Origin: Escherichia coli | GTDB lineage: Bacteria > Pseudomonadota > Gammaproteobacteria > Enterobacterales > Enterobacteriaceae | DNA length: 64,000 bases | Direction: 5' to 3' (one strand) | Assembly: GCF_046105845.1 (NCBI RefSeq) | Contig: NZ_CP151004.1 | Shown: positions 2,994 to 37,089 of the stretch, piece by piece | How positions within the stretch are numbered: the stretch's first letter is position 1 | Layout of the letters: each line of letters begins with the position of its first letter | The notes under the pieces: generated by a model | Told to the model about the DNA's origin: nothing | The model's database searches: none | The model's input: the letters and a program-made list of their open reading frames with translations, nothing else | Translations under genes and position numbers: made by a program

Positions 2994-3785
2994 ATGAATC
3001 AAATCGACCGTTTGCTCACTATTATGCAGCGCCTGCGCGATCCGGAAAATGGCTGCCCGTGGGATAAAGAGCAGACATTTGCCACCATTGCGCCTTACAC
3101 CCTTGAAGAAACCTACGAGGTGCTGGACGCCATCGCCCGTGAAGATTTTGACGATCTTCGCGGTGAACTGGGCGATCTGCTGTTCCAGGTGGTGTTTTAC
3201 GCACAAATGGCCCAGGAAGAAGGGCGCTTTGACTTTAATGATATTTGCGCCGCGATCAGCGATAAATTAGAACGTCGCCATCCGCATGTTTTTGCTGACA
3301 GTTCTGCCGAAAACAGTAGTGAAGTGCTTGCCCGTTGGGAGCAAATCAAAACCGAAGAGCGCGCGCAGAAAGCGCAGCATTCGGCGCTGGACGATATTCC
3401 TCGTAGTTTACCGGCTTTAATGCGTGCGCAAAAAATCCAGAAACGTTGCGCCAACGTTGGTTTTGACTGGACGACGCTTGGTCCGGTAGTCGATAAAGTC
3501 TACGAAGAGATCGACGAGGTGATGTACGAGGCACGGCAGGCTGTTATCGACCAGGCTAAACTGGAGGAGGAAATGGGCGACCTGCTGTTTGCCACGGTCA
3601 ATCTGGCTCGTCATTTAGGGACAAAAGCGGAAATCGCATTGCAAAAAGCGAACGAAAAATTCGAGCGTCGTTTTCGCGAAGTGGAGCGTATTGTTGCCGC
3701 GCGTGGACTGGAAATGACAGGTGTTGACCTCGAAACAATGGAAGAAGTCTGGCAACAGGTAAAACGGCAGGAAATTGATCTCTAA
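2994..3785 (+). CDS. mazG: nucleoside triphosphate pyrophosphohydrolase MazG
   Basis: 263-aa ORF, tandem MazG domains, position downstream of mazEF. Confidence 0.9.
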   Translation: MNQIDRLLTIMQRLRDPENGCPWDKEQTFATIAPYTLEETYEVLDAIAREDFDDLRGELGDLLFQVVFYAQMAQEEGRFDFNDICAAISDKLERRHPHVFADSSAENSSEVLARWEQIKTEERAQKAQHSALDDIPRSLPALMRAQKIQKRCANVGFDWTTLGPVVDKVYEEIDEVMYEARQAVIDQAKLEEEMGDLLFATVNLARHLGTKAEIALQKANEKFERRFREVERIVAARGLEMTGVDLETMEEVWQQVKRQEIDL

Positions 3786-7095: not shown

Positions 7096-7968
7096 TTACC
7101 AGCGACCGGACGCGCCGCCACCGCCAGAAGAACCGCCCCCGCCGCTAAATCCGCCGCCACTTGAGCCGCCACCGGAACCGCTGTTGTCTGAATGATAACT
7201 TCTACCAGATGCTTTTTTCTGAAGTACACATAAACAGGTAAAGACCATAAATATGGTGAAAGTAAAAAAGAAGGAAAATACAGCAATGGAAAAAGTTTTA
7301 TCGGAGAACAGGAATAAATCTAAAAGATAGATTGCTGAAATACAGACTCCACTTTTACATGCGCGACAAAAATTACTGCCTTGATGAAAAAACCAGAAAG
7401 GGAAGAACATCACTGCAAATACCCAAAAAATAGCAAAGTAATAATGATCACTGGAAGACGTTGATTCACTTTCTGAAGGTTTAGCCGGATATTGGTGTTG
7501 TGAAGTGAGTTGGTTATTCAAAGCGTTTATAGCTAGCTCTAATCCCTGAGCTAATTTTTGTTGTTCAAATGCGGGTATCATGTTGCTACGGATGATATCT
7601 CCAGCCAGAGCATCGGTTACCTTTTCTTCCAGCCCATAACCTACCTGGATGCGGACAGTACGATCCGACCAGGCAACAATGATCAGTATCCCATCATTAC
7701 GTTTGGCATCTCCTAAACGCCAATTGTCAAAAACTCTTGTAGCATATTGTTCAATTGTCTCGTCTTTGGTTGTGGGAACAATTAATACAGCAATTTGCAC
7801 TTGGGTATTATTGAAAATAGATTCTAACTTGTACGTCAGTTCTTTCTTTTCTTGTGAGTTTAAGCTACTCGTAAGATCCGTAACTTGTTGCTGTAATGAT
7901 GGGACAATAGTTGGTTGGGCTGCAACAAAGGAACACACGAATGTGAACATTAGTATGAAATAGCGCAT
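7096..7968 (-). CDS. ygcG: TPM-domain protein YgcG with Gly/Ser-rich C-terminal tail
   Basis: ORF extends to 8037 but likely start is [18 protein letters not shown] (signal-peptide-like), giving 290 aa; C-terminal [20 protein letters not shown] low-complexity tail. Confidence 0.8.
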
Positions 7969-8261
7969 TATAAATTTCTCATTAAATCTGGATAAATAAA
8001 TTGACGGCGGCATCGGTAATTTGAGATTCGTTATCATTAAAAACGAACACAGAAAAAATAAATATAAATTTGGTGAATGTTTTTGACATGATTAAATCCA
8101 TTTGCTTTATTTTCTTCTGACATAATACGTTACTCCCTTTAATTATTAACGATATGTTTCGCATTTTTCTTGAAACCTGCCTGTAACAGAATGTTAATAA
8201 GACATGATTGTTGTGGCAGGATCTGCAATAATTAACAATTATCCACTTCACAGAGAATGCT

Positions 8262-8933
8262 ATGCAGTACCCGATTAACGAGATGTTCCAGACCCTGCAA
8301 GGTGAGGGTTACTTTACCGGCGTCCCCGCTATTTTTATTCGTTTACAGGGATGCCCGGTTGGCTGTGCCTGGTGCGACACCAAACACACCTGGGAAAAGC
8401 TTGAGGATCGGGAAGTCTCCCTTTTCAGCATTCTGGGTAAAACGAAAGAGAGTGATAAGTGGGGAGCAGCAAGCAGTGAAGACTTACTCGCAGTCATCGG
8501 TCGTCAGGGATACACCGCGCGTCACGTGGTGATTACGGGTGGTGAACCTTGTATTCATGACTTGATGCCACTAACTGACCTGCTCGAAAAGAACGGTTTT
8601 AGCTGCCAGATCGAAACCAGTGGTACTCATGAAGTACGCTGCACACCGAATACCTGGGTTACCGTATCGCCAAAGCTGAACATGCGCGGCGGCTATGAAG
8701 TGTTGTCACAGGCACTGGAGCGAGCCAACGAAATCAAGCATCCAGTGGGACGCGTACGTGATATTGAAGCACTGGATGAACTTTTGGCGACGCTGACCGA
8801 TGATAAACCGCGAGTCATTGCACTGCAGCCGATTAGCCAAAAGGATGATGCCACACGTTTGTGCATTGAAACTTGCATTGCGCGTAACTGGCGTTTGTCG
8901 ATGCAAACACATAAATATTTAAATATTGCCTGA
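8262..8933 (+). CDS. queE: 7-carboxy-7-deazaguanine synthase (radical SAM)
   Basis: 223-aa ORF MQYPINEMFQTLQGEGYFTGVPAIFIRLQGCPVGCAWCDTK..., radical SAM Cys motif. Confidence 0.9.
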   Translation: MQYPINEMFQTLQGEGYFTGVPAIFIRLQGCPVGCAWCDTKHTWEKLEDREVSLFSILGKTKESDKWGAASSEDLLAVIGRQGYTARHVVITGGEPCIHDLMPLTDLLEKNGFSCQIETSGTHEVRCTPNTWVTVSPKLNMRGGYEVLSQALERANEIKHPVGRVRDIEALDELLATLTDDKPRVIALQPISQKDDATRLCIETCIARNWRLSMQTHKYLNIA

Positions 8934-8954
8934 TTACACATTTATATGCGTTAT

Positions 8955-8998
8955 AAATGGGTGGAACCTGTAAAGACTTCCACTCATTTATATTTTTT
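8955..8998 (+). terminator. putative intrinsic terminator after queE
   Basis: Stem AAATGGGTGGAA / TTCCACTCATTT (one mismatch) followed by ATATTTTTT. Confidence 0.5.
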
Positions 8999-9099
8999 GT
9001 CGCCTCTGAAAACTCATCCATTTTGCCCATTCTGGACTAATCATTGTCATTCTCTACAAATTCTGTAGCGTTAATTTTTCTCTGGGGTGAAAATTATTA

Positions 9100-9271
9100 C
9101 GTCGGAGTTTGGTAGATTTTAGTTTGTATAGAGTTATTTTAAATATTTACCTTTTCAATCAATGGATTAAGTGCTCTTTAACATAATAGATGTGTTGTTT
9201 GTGTGATACTGTAAAGTTGGTAGATTGTGACTGGCTTAAAAAATCATTAATTAATAATAGGTTATGTTTAG
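9100..9271 (+). promoter_or_regulatory. CRISPR leader (AT-rich) of orphan array
   Basis: AT-rich tract ending ...TTATGTTTAGA immediately 5' of first repeat; same TTTAGA junction as the cas-adjacent leader; 5' boundary approximate. Confidence 0.6.
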
Positions 9272-10643
9272 AGAGTTCCCCGCGCCAGCGGGGATAAACC
9301 GTTGTCCTGCTGAACCAAGTAAGCCACTGACAAGAGTTCCCCGCGCCAGCGGGGATAAACCGCATTATATCCTGTGCGTCGTTCATTTATTTACGAGTTC
9401 CCCGCGCCAGCGGGGATAAACCGGCCGCCGCATGGCAAAACAAACATCGGGGTACGAGTTCCCCGCGCCAGCGGGGATAAACCGGAACGGCGGCTATACG
9501 GATTCGACAGGTCAGCGAGTTCCCCGCGCCAGCGGGGATAAACCGGATTGAATGCAGATGGTTCAATGCTCGCATTCGAGTTCCCCGCGCCAGCGGGGAT
9601 AAACCGCCACGCGTGCTTTGAGTGGATGGTGTCGCTTGGAGTTCCCCGCGCCAGCGGGGATAAACCGATACATTATTAAGCGGGCAATTTTTCCAGTTTG
9701 AGTTCCCCGCGCCAGCGGGGATAAACCGAACGGCACGGCCTGCCGCCACGTCCCGCAGCTGAGTTCCCCGCGCCAGCGGGGATAAACCGGGGCCGTGTTT
9801 TCTAACGGATTCGCACATTGCGAGTTCCCCGCGCCAGCGGGGATAAACCGCAGCAGTTCAATACTGAAATCAACATGCCGATGAGTTCCCCGCGCCAGCG
9901 GGGATAAACCGCGCGGTGGGGTTTCATTCGCATCAATTCAAGGGAGTTCCCCGCGCCAGCGGGGATAAACCGGCGGTGAGTGAGAAAATCAGGACGGCTG
10001 CGAGGAGTTCCCCGCGCCAGCGGGGATAAACCGCGCCAAATATGCTGGTGGACTTCTACGCCGATGAGTTCCCCGCGCCAGCGGGGATAAACCGCTATCG
10101 ACGGTCAAGAAAATCCACCGGAAGAAGAGTTCCCCGCGCCAGCGGGGATAAACCGGCAGCAATATATTTGACATAATAGATAACCCGGAGTTCCCCGCGC
10201 CAGCGGGGATAAACCGACGCCAGGGGAGATATAACGCGCCTGTTATGGGAGTTCCCCGCGCCAGCGGGGATAAACCGGTCTTAACTAAAAGATGACCATT
10301 CAGTCGCAGGAGTTCCCCGCGCCAGCGGGGATAAACCGCGGCCCATAATATTAATATAATCCACATGAGGGAGTTCCCCGCGCCAGCGGGGATAAACCGC
10401 GCCGGAAATCATCGTTCTGTAATTGTCTAGCGAGTTCCCCGCGCCAGCGGGGATAAACCGCCCTGTTTGTTATTCCCATTATACGTATAAGAGAGTTCCC
10501 CGCGCCAGCGGGGATAAACCGCTTCTGGCTGGAGGTGGAGAAACGGAGGCAATGAGTTCCCCGCGTTAGCGGGGATAAACCGGATTTAGAGAGCCAGACG
10601 TTGGTCAGTTATTCGAGTTCCCCGCGTCAGCGGGGATAACCAT
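9272..10643 (+). CRISPR. orphan type I-E CRISPR array, 23 repeats / 22 spacers
   Basis: 29-bp repeat GAGTTCCCCGCGCCAGCGGGGATAAACCG at 61-bp period (first interval 62); last two repeats degenerate (GCGTTAGCGGGG; GCGTCAGCGGGGATAACCAT); no cas genes adjacent. Confidence 0.97.
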
Positions 10644-26840: not shown

Positions 26841-29507
26841 ATGGAACCTTTTAAATATATATGTCATTACTGGGGGAAATCCTCAAAAAGCCTGACGAAA
26901 GGAAATGATATTCATCTGTTGATTTATCATTGCCTGGATGTTGCAGCTGTTGCAGATTGCTGGTGGGATCAATCAGTCGTACTACAAAATGCTTTTTGCC
27001 GAAATGAAATGCTATCAAAACAGAAGGTGAAAGCCTGGCTGTTATTTTTCATTGCCCTTCATGATATCGGAAAGTTTGATATACGATTCCAATATAAATC
27101 AGCAGAAAGTTGGCTGAAATTAAATCCTGCAACGCCATCACTTAATGGTCCATCAACACAAATGTGCCGTAAATTTAATCATGGTGCAGCCGGTCTGTAT
27201 TGGTTTAACCAGGATTCACTTTCAGAGCAATCTCCCGGGGATTTTTTCAGTTTTTTTGATGCCGCTCCTCATCCTTATGAGTCCTGGTTTCCATGGGTAG
27301 AGGCCGTTACAGGACATCATGGTTTTATATTACATTCCCAGGATCAAGATAAGTCGCGTTGGGAAATGCCAGCTTCTCTGGCATCTTATGCTGCGCAAGA
27401 TAAACAGGCTCGTGAGGAGTGGATATCTGTACTCGAAGCATTATTTTTAACGCCAGCTGGGTTATCTATAAACGATATACCACCTGATTGTTCATCACTG
27501 TTAGCAGGTTTTTGCTCGCTTGCTGACTGGTTAGGTTCCTGGACCACAACGGATACCTTTCTATTCAAAGAAGATGCACCTTCAGGCATACAAGCGCTAA
27601 GAACATATTTTCAGTATAGACAACAGGATGCGTGTCGGGTACTGGAGTTGAGTGGCCTTGTATCAAATAAGCGTAGTTATGACGGCGTACATGCCTTACT
27701 GGACAATGGCTATCAACCAAGACAATTACAGGTGTTGGTTGATGCTCTTCCTACAGCTCCCGGGCTGACGGTGATTGAGGCACCTACGGGATCAGGTAAA
27801 ACCGAAACAGCGCTGGCCTATGCCTGGAAACTTATTGACCAACAACTTGCGGAGAGTGTTATTTTTGCCCTCCCTACACAAGCTACTGCAAATGCAATGC
27901 TCAGTAGAATGGAAGCGAACGCGAGCCGTTTATTTACCTCCCCAAATCTTATTCTTGCTCATGGTAATTCACGTTTTAACCACCTTTTTCAATCAATAAA
28001 ATCACGCGCATTTACTGAGCAGGGGCAAGAAGAAGCATGGGTTCAGTGTTGCCAATGGTTGTCACAAAGTAATAAGAAAGTGTTTCTAGGGCAAATAGGC
28101 GTTTGCACGATTGATCAGGTATTGATATCGGTATTGCCAGTTAAACATCGCTTTATCCGTGGTTTGGGAATTGGTCGAAGTATTTTAATTGTTGATGAAG
28201 TTCATGCTTACGACACGTATATGAACGGCTTGCTGGAGGCTGTGCTCAAGGCTCAGGCTGATGTGGGAGGGAGTGTTATTCTTCTTTCCGCAACTCTACC
28301 AATGAAACAAAAACAGAAACTTCTGGATACTTATGGTCTGCATACAGATCCAGAGGAAAATAACTCCGCATATCCACTCATTAACTGGCGAGGTGTGAAT
28401 GGTGCACAACGTTTTGATCTGTTAGCTCATCCAGAACAACTCCCGCCCCGCTTTTCGATTCGGCCAGAACCTATTTATTTAGCTGACATGTTACCTGACC
28501 TTAGGATGTTAGAGCGAATGATCGCAGCGGCAAATGCGGGTGCACAAGTCTGTCTTATCTGCAATTTGGTTGATGTTGCACAACTATGCCACCAACGGTT
28601 AAAGGAACTAAATAACACGCAAGTAGATATAGATTTGTTTCATGCGCGCTTTACGCTGAACGATCGTCGTGAAAAAGAGAATCGAGTTATTAGCAATTTC
28701 GGCAAAAATGGGAAGCGAAATGTTGGACGGATACTTGTCGCCACCCAGGTCGTGGAACAATCACTCGACGTTGATTTTGATTGGTTAATTACTCAGCATT
28801 GCCCCGCAGATTTACTTTTCCAACGATTGGGCCGTTTACATCGCCATCATCGCAAATATCGTCCCGCTGGTTTTGAGGTTCCTCTTGCCACCGTTTTGCT
28901 GCCTGATGGCGAAGGTTACGGACGACATGAGCATATTTATAGCAACGTTAGAGTCATGTGGCGGACGCAGCAACATATTGAGGAACTTAATGGAGCATCC
29001 TTATTTTTCCCCGATGCCTACCGGCAATGGCTGGATAGCATTTACGATGATGCTGAAATGGATGAGCCAGAATGGGTCATCAAAGGCATGGATAAGTTTG
29101 AAAGCGCTGAGTGTGAAAAGAGGTTCAAGGCTCGCAAGGTTCTGCAGTGGGCTGAAGAATATAGCTTGCAGGATAACGATGAAACAATTCTTGCGGTAAC
29201 GAGGGATGGGGAAATGAGCCTGCCATTATTGCCTTATTTACAAACGTCTTCAGGTAAACAACTGCTCGATGGCCAGGTCTACGAGGACCTAAGTCATGAA
29301 CAGCAGTATGAGGCGTTAGCACTTAATCGCGTCAATGTACCCTTCACCTGGAAACGTAATTTTTCTGAAGTAGTAGATGAAGATGGGTTACTTTGGCTGG
29401 AAGGGAAACAGAATCAGAATGGATGGATCTGGCAGGGTAATAATATTGTTATTACCTACACTCGGGATGAAGGGATGACCAGAGTCATCCCTGCAAATCC
29501 CAAATAA
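26841..29507 (+). CDS. cas3: Cas3 nuclease-helicase (type I-E)
   Basis: 888-aa ORF; N-terminal HD domain (HxxxxD, IALHDIGK), DEAD/DEAH helicase motifs (GSGKTE, DEVH). Confidence 0.95.
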   Translation: MEPFKYICHYWGKSSKSLTKGNDIHLLIYHCLDVAAVADCWWDQSVVLQNAFCRNEMLSKQKVKAWLLFFIALHDIGKFDIRFQYKSAESWLKLNPATPSLNGPSTQMCRKFNHGAAGLYWFNQDSLSEQSPGDFFSFFDAAPHPYESWFPWVEAVTGHHGFILHSQDQDKSRWEMPASLASYAAQDKQAREEWISVLEALFLTPAGLSINDIPPDCSSLLAGFCSLADWLGSWTTTDTFLFKEDAPSGIQALRTYFQYRQQDACRVLELSGLVSNKRSYDGVHALLDNGYQPRQLQVLVDALPTAPGLTVIEAPTGSGKTETALAYAWKLIDQQLAESVIFALPTQATANAMLSRMEANASRLFTSPNLILAHGNSRFNHLFQSIKSRAFTEQGQEEAWVQCCQWLSQSNKKVFLGQIGVCTIDQVLISVLPVKHRFIRGLGIGRSILIVDEVHAYDTYMNGLLEAVLKAQADVGGSVILLSATLPMKQKQKLLDTYGLHTDPEENNSAYPLINWRGVNGAQRFDLLAHPEQLPPRFSIRPEPIYLADMLPDLRMLERMIAAANAGAQVCLICNLVDVAQLCHQRLKELNNTQVDIDLFHARFTLNDRREKENRVISNFGKNGKRNVGRILVATQVVEQSLDVDFDWLITQHCPADLLFQRLGRLHRHHRKYRPAGFEVPLATVLLPDGEGYGRHEHIYSNVRVMWRTQQHIEELNGASLFFPDAYRQWLDSIYDDAEMDEPEWVIKGMDKFESAECEKRFKARKVLQWAEEYSLQDNDETILAVTRDGEMSLPLLPYLQTSSGKQLLDGQVYEDLSHEQQYEALALNRVNVPFTWKRNFSEVVDEDGLLWLEGKQNQNGWIWQGNNIVITYTRDEGMTRVIPANPK

Positions 29508-29921
29508 CTTCGGGAATGATTGGTATCAATGACGATAACAAGACCAATAACGGTTTATCCCTACTTAAGTAGGGAAGGTGCACAATGTACATCTTCTTTT
29601 AATTTCCCGGTATGAGATTTTATATTCACAGTATGAATATTTTATGTAATAAAATTCATGGTGATTATTATAACTAAAAATTTCTTTGATAATAAAACGA
29701 ATAACTTGCAGATTTGAAATGCATGCATTATTGTCTTTAAACAATTCAACACATCTTAATATATGCATAGGTTAATTGTATTAAACCAATGGATATATTT
29801 TTGCAGTGAATGTGATTATTGAATTAATTACGCCGTATTTTTTCTTTGTTTTTACCGATAACGGAAGTGTGCCGACGTATAGAAATGCAGGAGAAATGTC
29901 GGAGCATATGAAGGAGAACAA
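29508..29921 (+). promoter_or_regulatory. AT-rich intergenic region upstream of cse1 (Cascade operon promoter region)
   Basis: 414-bp strongly AT-rich tract between cas3 and cse1; in K-12 the corresponding region holds the H-NS-repressed, LeuO-activated Pcas promoter. Confidence 0.55.
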
Positions 29922-31430
29922 ATGAATTTGCTTATTGATAACTGGATCCCTGTACGCCCGCGAAACGGGGGGAAAGTCCAAATCATAAATCTGCAATCGC
30001 TATACTGCAGTAGAGATCAGTGGCGATTAAGTTTGCCCCGTGACGATATGGAACTGGCCGCTTTAGCACTGCTGGTTTGCATTGGGCAAATTATCGCCCC
30101 GGCAAAAGATGACGTTGAATTTCGACATCGCATAATGAATCCGCTCACTGAAGATGAGTTTCAACAACTCATCGCGCCGTGGATAGATATGTTCTACCTT
30201 AATCACGCAGAACATCCCTTTATGCAGACCAAAGGTGTCAAAGCAAATGATGTGACTCCAATGGAAAAACTGTTGGCTGGGGTAAGCGGCGCGACGAATT
30301 GTGCATTTGTCAATCAACCGGGGCAGGGTGAAGCATTATGTGGTGGATGCACTGCGATTGCGTTATTCAACCAGGCGAATCAGGCACCTGGTTTTGGTGG
30401 TGGCTTTAAAAGCGGTTTACGTGGAGGAACACCTATAACCACCTTCGTATGTGGGATCGATCTTCGCTCGACGGTGTTACTCAATGTCCTCACAATACCT
30501 CGTCTTCAAAAACAATTTCCCAATGAATCAAATACGGAAAACCAACCTACCTGGATTAAGCCTGTCAAGCCCAATGAATCTGTGCCAGCTTCGTCAATTG
30601 GGTTTGTCCGTGGCTTATTCTGGCAACCAGCGCATATTGAATTATGCGATCCCATTGGGATTGGTAAATGTTCTTGCTGTGGACAGGAAAGCAATTTGCG
30701 TTATACAGGTTTTCTTAAGGAAAAATTTACCTTTACAGTTAATGGGCTATGGCCCCATCCGCATTCCCCTTGTCTGGTAACAGTCAAGAAAGGGGAGGTT
30801 GAGGAAAAATTTCTTGCTTTCACCACCTCCGCACCATCATGGACACAAATCAGCCGAGTTGTGGTAGATAAGATTATTCAAAATGAAAATGGAAATCGCG
30901 TGGCGGCGGTTGTGAATCAATTCAGAAATATTGCGCCGCAAAGTCCTCTTGAATTGATTATGGGGGGATATCGTAATAATCAAGCATCTATTCTTGAACG
31001 GCGTCATGATGTGTTGATGTTTAATCAGGGGTGGCAACAATACGGCAATGTGATAAACGAAATAGTGACTGTTGGTTTGGGATATAAAACAGCCTTACGC
31101 AAGGCGTTATATACCTTTGCAGAAGGGTTTAAAAATAAAGACTTCAAAGGGGCCGGAGTCTCTGTTCATGAGACTGCAGAAAGGCATTTCTATCGACAGA
31201 GTGAATTATTAATTCCCGATGTACTGGCGAATATTAATTTTTCCCAAGCTGATGAGGTAATAGCTGATCTACGAGACAAACTTCATCAATTGTGTGAAAT
31301 GCTATTTAATCAATCTGTAGCTCCCTATGCACATCATCCTAAATTAATAAGCACATTAGCGCTTGCCCGCGCCACGCTATACAAACATTTACGGGAGTTA
31401 AAACCGCAAGGAGGGTCATCAAATGGCTGA
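29922..31430 (+). CDS. casA: Cascade large subunit Cse1/CasA
   Basis: 502-aa ORF MNLLIDNWIPVRPRNGGKVQIINLQSL... Confidence 0.93.
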   Translation: MNLLIDNWIPVRPRNGGKVQIINLQSLYCSRDQWRLSLPRDDMELAALALLVCIGQIIAPAKDDVEFRHRIMNPLTEDEFQQLIAPWIDMFYLNHAEHPFMQTKGVKANDVTPMEKLLAGVSGATNCAFVNQPGQGEALCGGCTAIALFNQANQAPGFGGGFKSGLRGGTPITTFVCGIDLRSTVLLNVLTIPRLQKQFPNESNTENQPTWIKPVKPNESVPASSIGFVRGLFWQPAHIELCDPIGIGKCSCCGQESNLRYTGFLKEKFTFTVNGLWPHPHSPCLVTVKKGEVEEKFLAFTTSAPSWTQISRVVVDKIIQNENGNRVAAVVNQFRNIAPQSPLELIMGGYRNNQASILERRHDVLMFNQGWQQYGNVINEIVTVGLGYKTALRKALYTFAEGFKNKDFKGAGVSVHETAERHFYRQSELLIPDVLANINFSQADEVIADLRDKLHQLCEMLFNQSVAPYAHHPKLISTLALARATLYKHLRELKPQGGSSNG

Positions 31431-35596: not shown

Positions 35597-37089
35597 GAGT
35601 TCCCCGCGCCAGCGGGGATAAACCGTCCGATCCGAAAAAACGGGTAGTCGCCTACGAGAGTTCCCCGCGCCAGCGGGGATAAACCGCCCAGTGGCGAAGG
35701 GCAACGTAAGCATAAAACGAGTTCCCCGCGCCAGCGGGGATAAACCGGGGTAACACCGTGGCAGCAAGTCGATCCGCTGGAGTTCCCCGCGCCAGCGGGG
35801 ATAAACCTGATGCGCGCCGACTTGAATCACTGCGCATGGCGAGTTCCCCGCGCCAGCGGGGATAAACCGATGGACCGTGCCGCTTTTCGCCACCTGACGC
35901 CGAGTTCCCCGCGCCAGCGGGGATAAACCGTGGCTCCGGTCGGGGCCCGCCGCTTGCGGTGGGAGTTCCCCGCGCCAGCGGGGATAAACCGGTGCGTGAA
36001 TTATCTATCCAGGCAAAAGTAACGAGTTCCCCGCGCCAGCGGGGATAAACCGCATATTTTTCAGGATATCTATAAATGGGCGGGGAGTTCCCCGCGCCAG
36101 CGGGGATAAACCGCTCATCAAAATAATCGGCATTGTCAGAAATCCGAGTTCCCCGCGCCAGCGGGGATAAACCGTGCACTGGCTGACTACGCCGCAGCAC
36201 ATAAATGAGTTCCCCGCGCCAGCGGGGATAAACCGATAATTGATGCGATCTGGTCCACTACAGTGGCGAGTTCCCCGCGCCAGCGGGGATAAACCGTAGT
36301 TGCTGTTTAGGCTGTGTTGTGGTTACCAGAGTTCCCCGCGCCAGCGGGGATAAACCGACCTGCTCGCGATGCGTCTGCCGCTGGAACCCGAGTTCCCCGC
36401 GCCAGCGGGGATAAACCGTTGCGCGATCCATCGCTCAGCTTTGATCATGAGAGTTCCCCGCGCCAGCGGGGATAAACCGCGCAGCGCCGACGAACTGGAC
36501 GGCGCTATAAAGAGTTCCCCGCGCCAGCGGGGATAAACCGATGTGGCAGAAATTGATGGAGCGGATGTGCGAGAGTTCCCCGCGCCAGCGGGGATAAACC
36601 GATTTAGATACGGCACACAGGAATGCGCTGGATGAGTTCCCCGCGCCAGCGGGGATAAACCGCGGCTGGCTGTAATAATGCACGGCAGTGTGACGAGTTC
36701 CCCGCGCCAGCGGGGATAAACCGTGAATAATAAGGCGCTGACGGGCGATATTACGGAGTTCCCCGCGCCAGCGGGGATAAACCGGAACAACCTGAACGGA
36801 TGCCACCTTTTCACCTGAGTTCCCCGCGCCAGCGGGGATAAACCAACCGTCAGCATAGACCCATCTAGTCAGATTCTGTGTTCCCCGCGCCAGCGGGGAT
36901 AAACCGGCCCATTCCCCCCATACCGGCGGCAAGTTTAAGTGTTCCCCGCGCCAGCGGGGATAAACCGATTCCGTCAAATTTATCACTCAACGCCAGTTCG
37001 TGTTCCCCGCGCCAGCGGGGATAAACCGGGCGCACTGGATGCGATGATGGATATCACTTAGAATTCCCCGCCCCTGCGGTAGAACTCGC
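35597..37089 (+). CRISPR. type I-E CRISPR array, 25 repeats / 24 spacers
   Basis: 29-bp repeat GAGTTCCCCGCGCCAGCGGGGATAAACCG at strict 61-bp period; last three full repeats begin GTGTTCCCC; terminal repeat degenerate (GAATTCCCCGCCCCTGCGGTAGAACTCGC). Confidence 0.98.

Follow-up and report, generated by a model that had tools for sequence, protein, structure and literature searches.

The closest described counterpart of the locus considered here is the region between cas3 and casA of Escherichia coli K-12, which carries Pcas (also termed Pcas8e), the promoter of the Cascade operon. H-NS silences this promoter, with StpA acting as a repressor in the absence of H-NS; CRP represses Pcas as well, LeuO activates it, and a divergent promoter, anti-Pcas, is likewise subject to H-NS repression (PMC10011333). 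The anti-Pcas RNA has a length of 150–200 nt and is directed toward cas3 (PMC7074321). LeuO and LrhA bind two sites that flank the Pcas start and were mutated at −116 to −101 and at +40 to +55 (PMC12968389), while a SlyA site is located 100 bp upstream of casA (PMC5797941).

Control of a cas promoter by a guide RNA has been described for CreR of Salmonella enterica ATCC 51960. There, the cas3-casA gap contains a degenerate mini-CRISPR in which the 5' handle of the first pseudo-repeat (psiR1) and the hairpin of the second (psiR2) are kept, and the intervening spacer-like sequence (psiS) matches, through its 5' part, a site that is flanked by AAG and located upstream of casA. Salmonella I-E CreR represses PcasA ∼8.6-fold via E. 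coli Cascade, and this repression is relieved by extra crRNA or by AcrIE8 (Liu et al. 2023, bioRxiv 10.1101/2023.03.10.532045). Shmakov et al. 2023 predicted a mini-array in the I-E locus of E. coli as well, its target being located at Pcas and flanked by AAG, with LeuO and CRP sites covering the likely start of the mini-array transcript (PMC10120712). The autorepression circuit is thus already known as a concept, from this 2023 prediction in E. coli and from the demonstration with the Salmonella element. Further parallels are the CreTA modules of type I-B haloarchaea and type I-F Pseudomonas, in which a crRNA-like RNA from a mini-array guides Cascade by partial pairing beside a PAM and a promoter is repressed, and tracr-L of Streptococcus pyogenes, which is a natural non-canonical guide that sends the effector to its own (cas9) promoter via a short match. 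The latter belongs to a class 2 system, and its guide is a long tracrRNA isoform of unrelated sequence.

Here we describe the cas3-cse1 region within a 64-kb stretch of E. coli DNA (hereafter, the window), in which the genes are arranged in the order cysJIH / cas3 / casABCDE12 / CRISPR / iap / cysDNC. All genes downstream of cse1, that is, cse2, cas7, cas5, cas6e, cas1 and cas2, are intact and are followed by the CRISPR array.

The intergenic region and its promoter

The first-pass annotation had described a strongly AT-rich gap between cas3 and cse1, rich in A/T tracts, and this description is accurate. The ORF calls in the window (cas3, 26841–29507; cse1, i.e. casA, 29922–31430) leave a gap of exactly 414 bp, and RefSeq annotates the two flanking genes as cas3 and casA. 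The GC content of the gap is 0.307, as compared to 0.44 in each of the two flanking genes and 0.513 in the window as a whole, and falls to 0.239 in its core (29600–29850); nine runs of at least four A or T bases are present. The AT-richness is not a chance fluctuation: 0.14% of all 414-bp segments in the 64 kb are as AT-rich, every one of them overlapping the region, and the minimum (0.295) is reached by the segment starting at 29528. Strongly AT-rich DNA with A/T tracts is the usual substrate of H-NS.

Aligned with the K-12 references W3110 and MG1655, the gap exhibits 98.3% identity across all 414 bp, with seven SNPs and no indels, and the length and flanks (cysH-cas3 and casABCDE12-CRISPR-iap) are likewise shared. 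The same 414-bp fragment was amplified from K-12 by Curran et al. 2017 (PMC5797941), and their primer sequences match both ends of the region. Among 5426 complete E. coli genomes, 1133 have a match to the gap, in every case on the chromosome and with at best 99.3% identity; in 20 of these 1133, the match covers less than 80% of the gap. The region is almost certainly the Pcas regulatory region of a K-12-type type I-E cas operon, and the statement of the first-pass annotation that its K-12 counterpart holds an H-NS-repressed and LeuO-activated promoter is borne out by this orthology together with published work (PMC10011333, PMC12968389). Both the identity of the AT-rich gap and this interpretation are already known for the locus; taken by itself, the finding is a re-identification, in a form near-identical to that of K-12, of the best-studied CRISPR promoter region, and contains nothing new.

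It might be argued that the AT-richness merely reflects composition, as expected for horizontally acquired DNA or a generic spacer without specific regulatory content. The entire cas operon is indeed GC-poor (0.445, versus 0.54 in the flanking cys genes), and consensus scans for promoter and H-NS motifs revealed no enrichment. The region is, however, orthologous to one that has been dissected experimentally, so that published K-12 data contradict such a view; specific elements keep their positions across intergenic regions that are 52–62% identical, and related loci without an internal promoter have intergenic regions of 0–94 bp. We therefore assign this explanation next to no probability.

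The features of the region are listed in Table 1. Because the DNA is so AT-rich, promoter scanning is unable to place Pcas: a consensus promoter/terminator scan yielded two promoter-like sites where 3.5 were expected, both on the minus strand, and a position weight matrix scan yielded many near-equal candidates on both strands. The arrangement of the promoter in related loci (see below) instead suggests the core given in Table 1, from which transcription would start near 29741–29750 and generate a leader of ∼180 nt. This placement agrees with the numbering of PMC12968389 and with PMC10120712, where the predicted target is located immediately upstream of Pcas and over an H-NS site. The LeuO/LrhA sites were placed solely from the published numbering, aided by a pair of ATGAATAT motifs 156 bp apart, and are approximate, with an ambiguity of 155 versus 156 bp.

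Table 1. Sequence features in and around the cas3-cse1 gap (window coordinates).
Feature	Position	Strand	Basis or remark
cas3-cse1 intergenic region (orthologous to the cas3-casA region of K-12)	29508–29921		ORF boundaries, GC content, identity to K-12
psiR2, weaker pseudo-repeat TCATTCCCGAAGTTATTTGGGATTTGCAG	29491–29519	−	14/29 positions identical to the array repeat
psiS, 31-nt spacer-like sequence TTATTGGTCTTGTTATCGTCATTGATACCAA	29520–29550	−	between the two pseudo-repeats
psiR1, degenerate CRISPR repeat ACCTTCCCTACTTAAGTAGGGATAAACCG	29551–29579	−	19/29 positions identical to the array repeat
Inferred LeuO/LrhA site II and CRP site, approximate	29600–29660		LBS II, −116 to −101
Predicted psiS target (29704–29674) with AAG PAM (29707–29705)	29674–29707	−	14/15 pairing positions
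Candidate anti-Pcas promoter TTCAAA-18-TATTAT	29718–29689	−	consensus scan
Candidate anti-Pcas promoter TTATTA-17-TATAAT	29695–29667	−	consensus scan
Inferred Pcas core: −35 TTGCAG (29706–29711), 17-nt spacer, −10 TATTGT (29729–29734)	29706–29734	+	arrangement in relatives
Long casA leader	29735–29921	+	holds inferred LeuO/LrhA site I, candidate SlyA site and Shine-Dalgarno sequence
Decayed small-ORF remnant	29763–29925	+	aligns with the intact ORF of loci L014, L015 and L016
Inferred LeuO/LrhA site I	∼29780–29800		placed from the +40 to +55 numbering of PMC12968389
Candidate SlyA site TTATTGAATTAA	29816–29827		in the casA leader
Shine-Dalgarno sequence AAGGAG	29911–29916	+	upstream of casA

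Searching the region for the H-NS high-affinity motif TCGATAAATT with up to two mismatches returned a single two-mismatch match and no local enrichment, and Rfam, searched at a permissive threshold over 29300–30100, returned only chance-level snoRNA-like matches and neither a CRISPR nor an sRNA family. Small ORFs within the gap (67 and 71 residues on the minus strand, and several of 20–40 residues) were rejected as genes, being unconserved and expected by chance at such an AT content.

Based on orthology, the cas operon of this strain is probably silenced by H-NS. The alternative that strain-specific substitutions have left it non-silent, or not inducible by LeuO, draws on the seven SNPs relative to K-12: two are in psiS (positions 12 and 28), two in the PAM-distal part of its predicted target, and one, at 29792, lies in the inferred LeuO/LrhA site I. 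There are, however, no SNPs across 29689–29765, which spans the inferred −35 and −10 elements and the start, and both AT content and A/T tracts are the same as in K-12. The core promoter is thus unchanged, and its −35/−10 arrangement is kept even in four diverged relatives. We consider loss of silencing or of LeuO inducibility very unlikely.

The substitution at 29792 (A>G) distinguishes the window from K-12 and from the other five aligned E. coli sequences, and also turns the TGA of a decayed small ORF into TGG. A 55-nt BLAST query spanning 29792G yielded no match in the 5426 complete genomes, an outcome that suggests a rare allele and that word size or the low-complexity filter could also cause. 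Given its location, the substitution could alter activation by LeuO or LrhA.

A degenerate mini-CRISPR on the minus strand

The interpretation given in the first-pass annotation is incomplete, since the region also accommodates a divergent transcription unit (anti-Pcas) and, with a target next to Pcas, a degenerate mini-CRISPR. On the minus strand, two degenerate copies of the array repeat (GAGTTCCCCGCGCCAGCGGGGATAAACCG) enclose a spacer-sized sequence of 31 rather than 32 nt. The final 11 nt of psiR1, GGGATAAACCG, are identical to the array repeat and comprise three stem Gs and the complete crRNA 5' handle (ATAAACCG, 8 of 8 nt intact); 45 copies of this 11-mer occur in the window, and that in psiR1 is the sole one outside the two CRISPR arrays. 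PsiR1 is predicted to fold into a 7-bp stem with a tetraloop in the register of the true repeat (−10.3 kcal/mol; z −3.5), and its stem differs in sequence from that of the repeat, pairing being retained by compensatory changes. PsiR2, which spans the cas3 stop codon and the last five cas3 codons, likewise forms a hairpin in the repeat register (−8.5 kcal/mol; z −3.2). Since its G-U pairs are present in the minus-strand RNA only, the minus strand is the one on which the structure is relevant. Across six loci, 92.9% of the cells of the hairpin alignment are paired and five pairs have changed on both sides; none of 500 shuffles reached this level of pairing, and controls with slid registers were 29–64% paired. 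The E. coli element hence combines two degenerate repeats, a spacer-sized middle, an intact 5' handle and hairpins, as expected for a mini-CRISPR.

A further hairpin, with a stem of 9 bp (AGGGATGAC-CAGA-GTCATCCCT), is encoded by the final cas3 codons at 29463–29484, ∼7 nt from psiR2. It is kept in the related loci L011–L016, including L012 and L013, through compensatory codon changes (e.g. GMT.VIP to GMA.TIP). As it is also found in loci without a mini-array, this hairpin may serve the 3' end of the cas3 mRNA instead of the mini-array RNA.

The two CRISPR arrays of the window are of separate interest. CRISPR I (35597–37089) contains 24 repeat units and a decayed terminal repeat; its last three full repeats begin with GTG instead of GAG, and two internal repeats end with T or A instead of G. 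It is twice as long as its K-12 counterpart, which has 12 spacers (PMC12968389), suggesting past acquisition activity despite the presumed silencing. A second type I-E array (9273–10643; 23 repeats, the last two degenerate) shares repeat and orientation with CRISPR I and is located between queE/ygcF and ygcE, the position of CRISPR II in K-12. The adjoining ygcG-queE stretch (7600–9272; GC 0.32–0.36) exhibits at most 96.8% identity to any of the 5426 complete E. coli genomes, and comparison with the 99.3% observed for the cas3-cse1 gap indicates that the ygcG allele of this strain is divergent or recombinant.

A predicted target beside Pcas

The 5' part of psiS matches a minus-strand site that adjoins the inferred −35 element of Pcas, 214 bp upstream of casA, and the complement of its PAM (CTT) overlaps this element. 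Matches are found at positions 1–5, 7–8, 10–11 and 13–17, and mismatches at 6, 9 and 12. In E. coli Cascade, positions 6 and 12 of the guide are flipped out and hence unpaired. Position 9 remains as a genuine mismatch at a pairing position, and beyond the seed-proximal part (psiS positions 18–31) only 3 of 14 positions match. The combination of AAG and seed match occurs at a single site in the 64 kb, and the match was reached by none of 20,000 shuffled spacers and, in a separate test, by none of 3000. A seed-anchored partial match with a cognate PAM at a cas promoter, as is characteristic of CreR and CreA, is thus present. When compared with Salmonella CreR, whose psiS is different and whose target, ∼140 bp upstream of casA, is matched at 15 consecutive positions, the site in the window is more distant and interrupted, and had been known by prediction (PMC10120712).

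The quality of the match varies among strains, with 14 of 15 pairing positions matched in the window, 13 in K-12 (where position 17 of the target is mismatched) and 11 in strain P276M. In six E. coli sequences, the mini-array, the PAM and target positions 1–13 are invariant except for the two K-12 substitutions in psiS, whereas the core around mini-array and target is strongly divergent in P276M; the casA-proximal ∼130 bp of the gap are also invariant across the six.

At this locus, function has, judging from the sequences, been lost in some E. coli genomes. Strain 1506 (L009) has a deletion of casA and an IS1 inserted 93 bp into the gap, of which only the initial 38 bp are matched, while internal stops or truncations affect casA in P276M and RM9872 and cas3 in C325 (loci L006, L007 and L008).

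Guide and target in related loci

For comparison, we selected the loci encoding the closest relatives of the Cse1 protein of the window. In a scan of the genome collection with Cse1, only three distant Methylococcaceae loci (32–36% identity) were found, and these were left out of the comparison. Four relatives, L011, L014, L015 and L016 (Cse1 identities of 71%, 65%, 64% and 61%), have gaps of 376–414 bp, with only 52–62% identity among themselves and to the gap of E. coli. Each of them carries a minus-strand mini-array at the equivalent place, with psiR2 over the cas3 stop codon, a psiS of 31–33 nt, and psiR1. The sequence of psiS differs by lineage, and each of the four has its own AAG-flanked minus-strand target; the targets lie 208–237 bp upstream of cse1, with 8–13 consecutive pairing positions matched and position 6 mismatched in all five loci. 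In none of the five was the match reached by any of 3000 shuffled spacers. Guide and target have thus co-varied, and this co-variation constitutes the strongest evidence for function that comparison of sequences alone provides.

The promoter shares this pattern. In all five loci the complement of the PAM (CTT on the plus strand) overlaps a −35-like hexamer that is followed 16–17 nt later by TAnnnT; the pairs are TTGCAG/TATTGT in the window and TTCCAT/TATTAT, TTGAAG/TAATTT, TTGATT/TAAAAT and TTGCTT/TACTCT in the relatives, and the joint chance of finding this arrangement in all five is ∼5e-6. Loci with short cas3-cse1 gaps, that is, Atlantibacter (30 bp), Citrobacter TSA-1 (94 bp) and L017 (overlapping genes), have no mini-array. 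In Salmonella L010, which encodes the closest relative (Cse1 identity 78%), psiR1 has decayed and is unfolded (z +0.5) and a convincing target is absent, indicating that the mini-array circuit can be lost.

Such decay fits the view that Pcas is controlled only by proteins, namely H-NS and LeuO, and that the mini-CRISPR is, in E. coli, the relic of an old array and without function. The mismatch at pairing position 9 in E. coli and the reduced match in P276M point in the same direction, a literature search found no experimental study of the native mini-array of E. coli, and since wild-type H-NS represses both promoters, the mini-array RNA may rarely be made. A relic would not, however, be expected to recur in five lineages with unrelated psiS sequences, each having a PAM-flanked seed match at the equivalent place, to preserve its hairpins through changes on both sides, or to stay near-invariant together with PAM and target positions 1–13 in six E. 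coli sequences while the P276M core diverges. We thus regard a relic as rather unlikely, although it retains an appreciable share of our expectation, and lean, on present sequence comparisons, slightly toward the mini-array being a working autorepressor in E. coli. At the level of sequence, the E. coli element exhibits every feature expected of a CreR/CreA-type element, and the comparative support for CreR-type autorepression by Cascade is strong.

A model with two layers of control

Taken together, the region is very probably best explained by combining an H-NS/LeuO-controlled Pcas with a minus-strand mini-CRISPR that would guide autorepression by Cascade. In the first layer, which is taken from the literature, H-NS polymerised on the AT-rich DNA would silence both promoters, Pcas being a weak sigma-70 promoter, and LeuO or LrhA bound on both sides of Pcas would relieve this silencing. 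In the second layer, a minus-strand (anti-Pcas) transcript would traverse psiR1-psiS-psiR2 (29579–29491). Cleavage by Cas6e at the hairpin of each pseudo-repeat may then yield a crRNA-like RNA of ∼60 nt, expected to begin with AUAAACCG, which would be loaded into Cascade and pair, over nucleotides 1–17, with the AAG-flanked target. Pairing over this length would be sufficient for stable binding of Cascade and too short for recruitment of Cas3. As the PAM of the target overlaps the −35 element of Pcas and stable binding would occur without Cas3, Cascade would block its own promoter once H-NS silencing has been relieved, and would in this way limit its own synthesis.

The link between the anti-Pcas RNA and the guide is drawn here: no CRISPR paper mentioning anti-Pcas and the mini-array together was found in a literature search. 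An RNA of 150–200 nt would span the mini-array, and we infer that the anti-Pcas RNA is the precursor of the guide. Two candidate minus-strand promoters are located between 29667 and 29718 (Table 1); promoter-like hexamers are not enriched there relative to shuffles. Alternatively, as was first suggested for it, the anti-Pcas RNA might not guide Cascade but act in antisense on the 3' end of cas3, with effects on termination, stability or translation. In favor of such a role, the 150–200-nt RNA overlaps the 3' end of cas3 (PMC7074321, PMC10011333), as psiR2 does with the final cas3 codons, and a 231-nt stretch of the minus strand shows an unusual degree of structure (z −3.7). Such a role would, however, leave unexplained the exact 5' handle, the hairpins in repeat register and the co-varying PAM-flanked target 150 bp away, and an exclusively antisense function thus appears improbable; the antisense and guide roles are mutually compatible.

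A small ORF in the casA leader

In contrast to CreTA, where the promoter that is repressed drives a toxin gene, the toxins described to date being RNAs, the window holds no intact toxin candidate and has, at the corresponding place, only a frameshifted ORF remnant. Its ATG at 29763 and the frame from 29806 align with an intact ORF of 40–45 residues in L014, L015 and L016, and in E. coli the frame is broken by a 1-nt insertion, a 7-nt insertion and one deletion. In these relatives the conserved ORF (plus strand; L014 3042–3164, L015 3326–3463, L016 3350–3472; e.g. MAELIETSIQIVKVANSINYQGIAFLSLLIAVLALVKLRR) is located between the mini-array target with its promoter and cse1, and ends 29–38 nt ahead of cse1; in L011 it is split, with remnants at 3315–3365 and 3411–3461. 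The product would combine a hydrophobic helix with a basic tail. No family in Pfam or NCBIfam matches it, and when 1.84 billion representatives were searched with a profile, only the three query clusters were retrieved.

The conserved ORF could encode a small membrane toxin repressed by Cascade, that is, a protein analogue of CreT. It is then tempting to propose that the anti-Pcas RNA is a CreR-type guide precursor and, at the same time, that the casA leader contains a decayed gene for a Cascade-repressed membrane peptide which in relatives acts as a protein CreT-like toxin. We put this combined proposal forward tentatively and consider it a possibility that is more likely to fail than to hold.

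Implications

What is added here to the known promoter region and the predicted circuit is a map of the mini-CRISPR and its target, independent comparative evidence of guide, target, PAM and promoter co-evolving as a unit, and the suggestion of a concrete role for the anti-Pcas transcript. Should the combined proposal for the small ORF turn out to be correct, the E. coli element would represent a CreTA module that has lost its toxin and turned into a pure autoregulator, while the intact peptide gene in related I-E loci would guard Cascade. Finally, K-12 serves as the reference for type I-E systems, and both the cause of its silence and the events that follow relief from H-NS are still debated; a native guide that represses Pcas, if it exists, would affect the interpretation of experiments with hns mutants and with LeuO overexpression.
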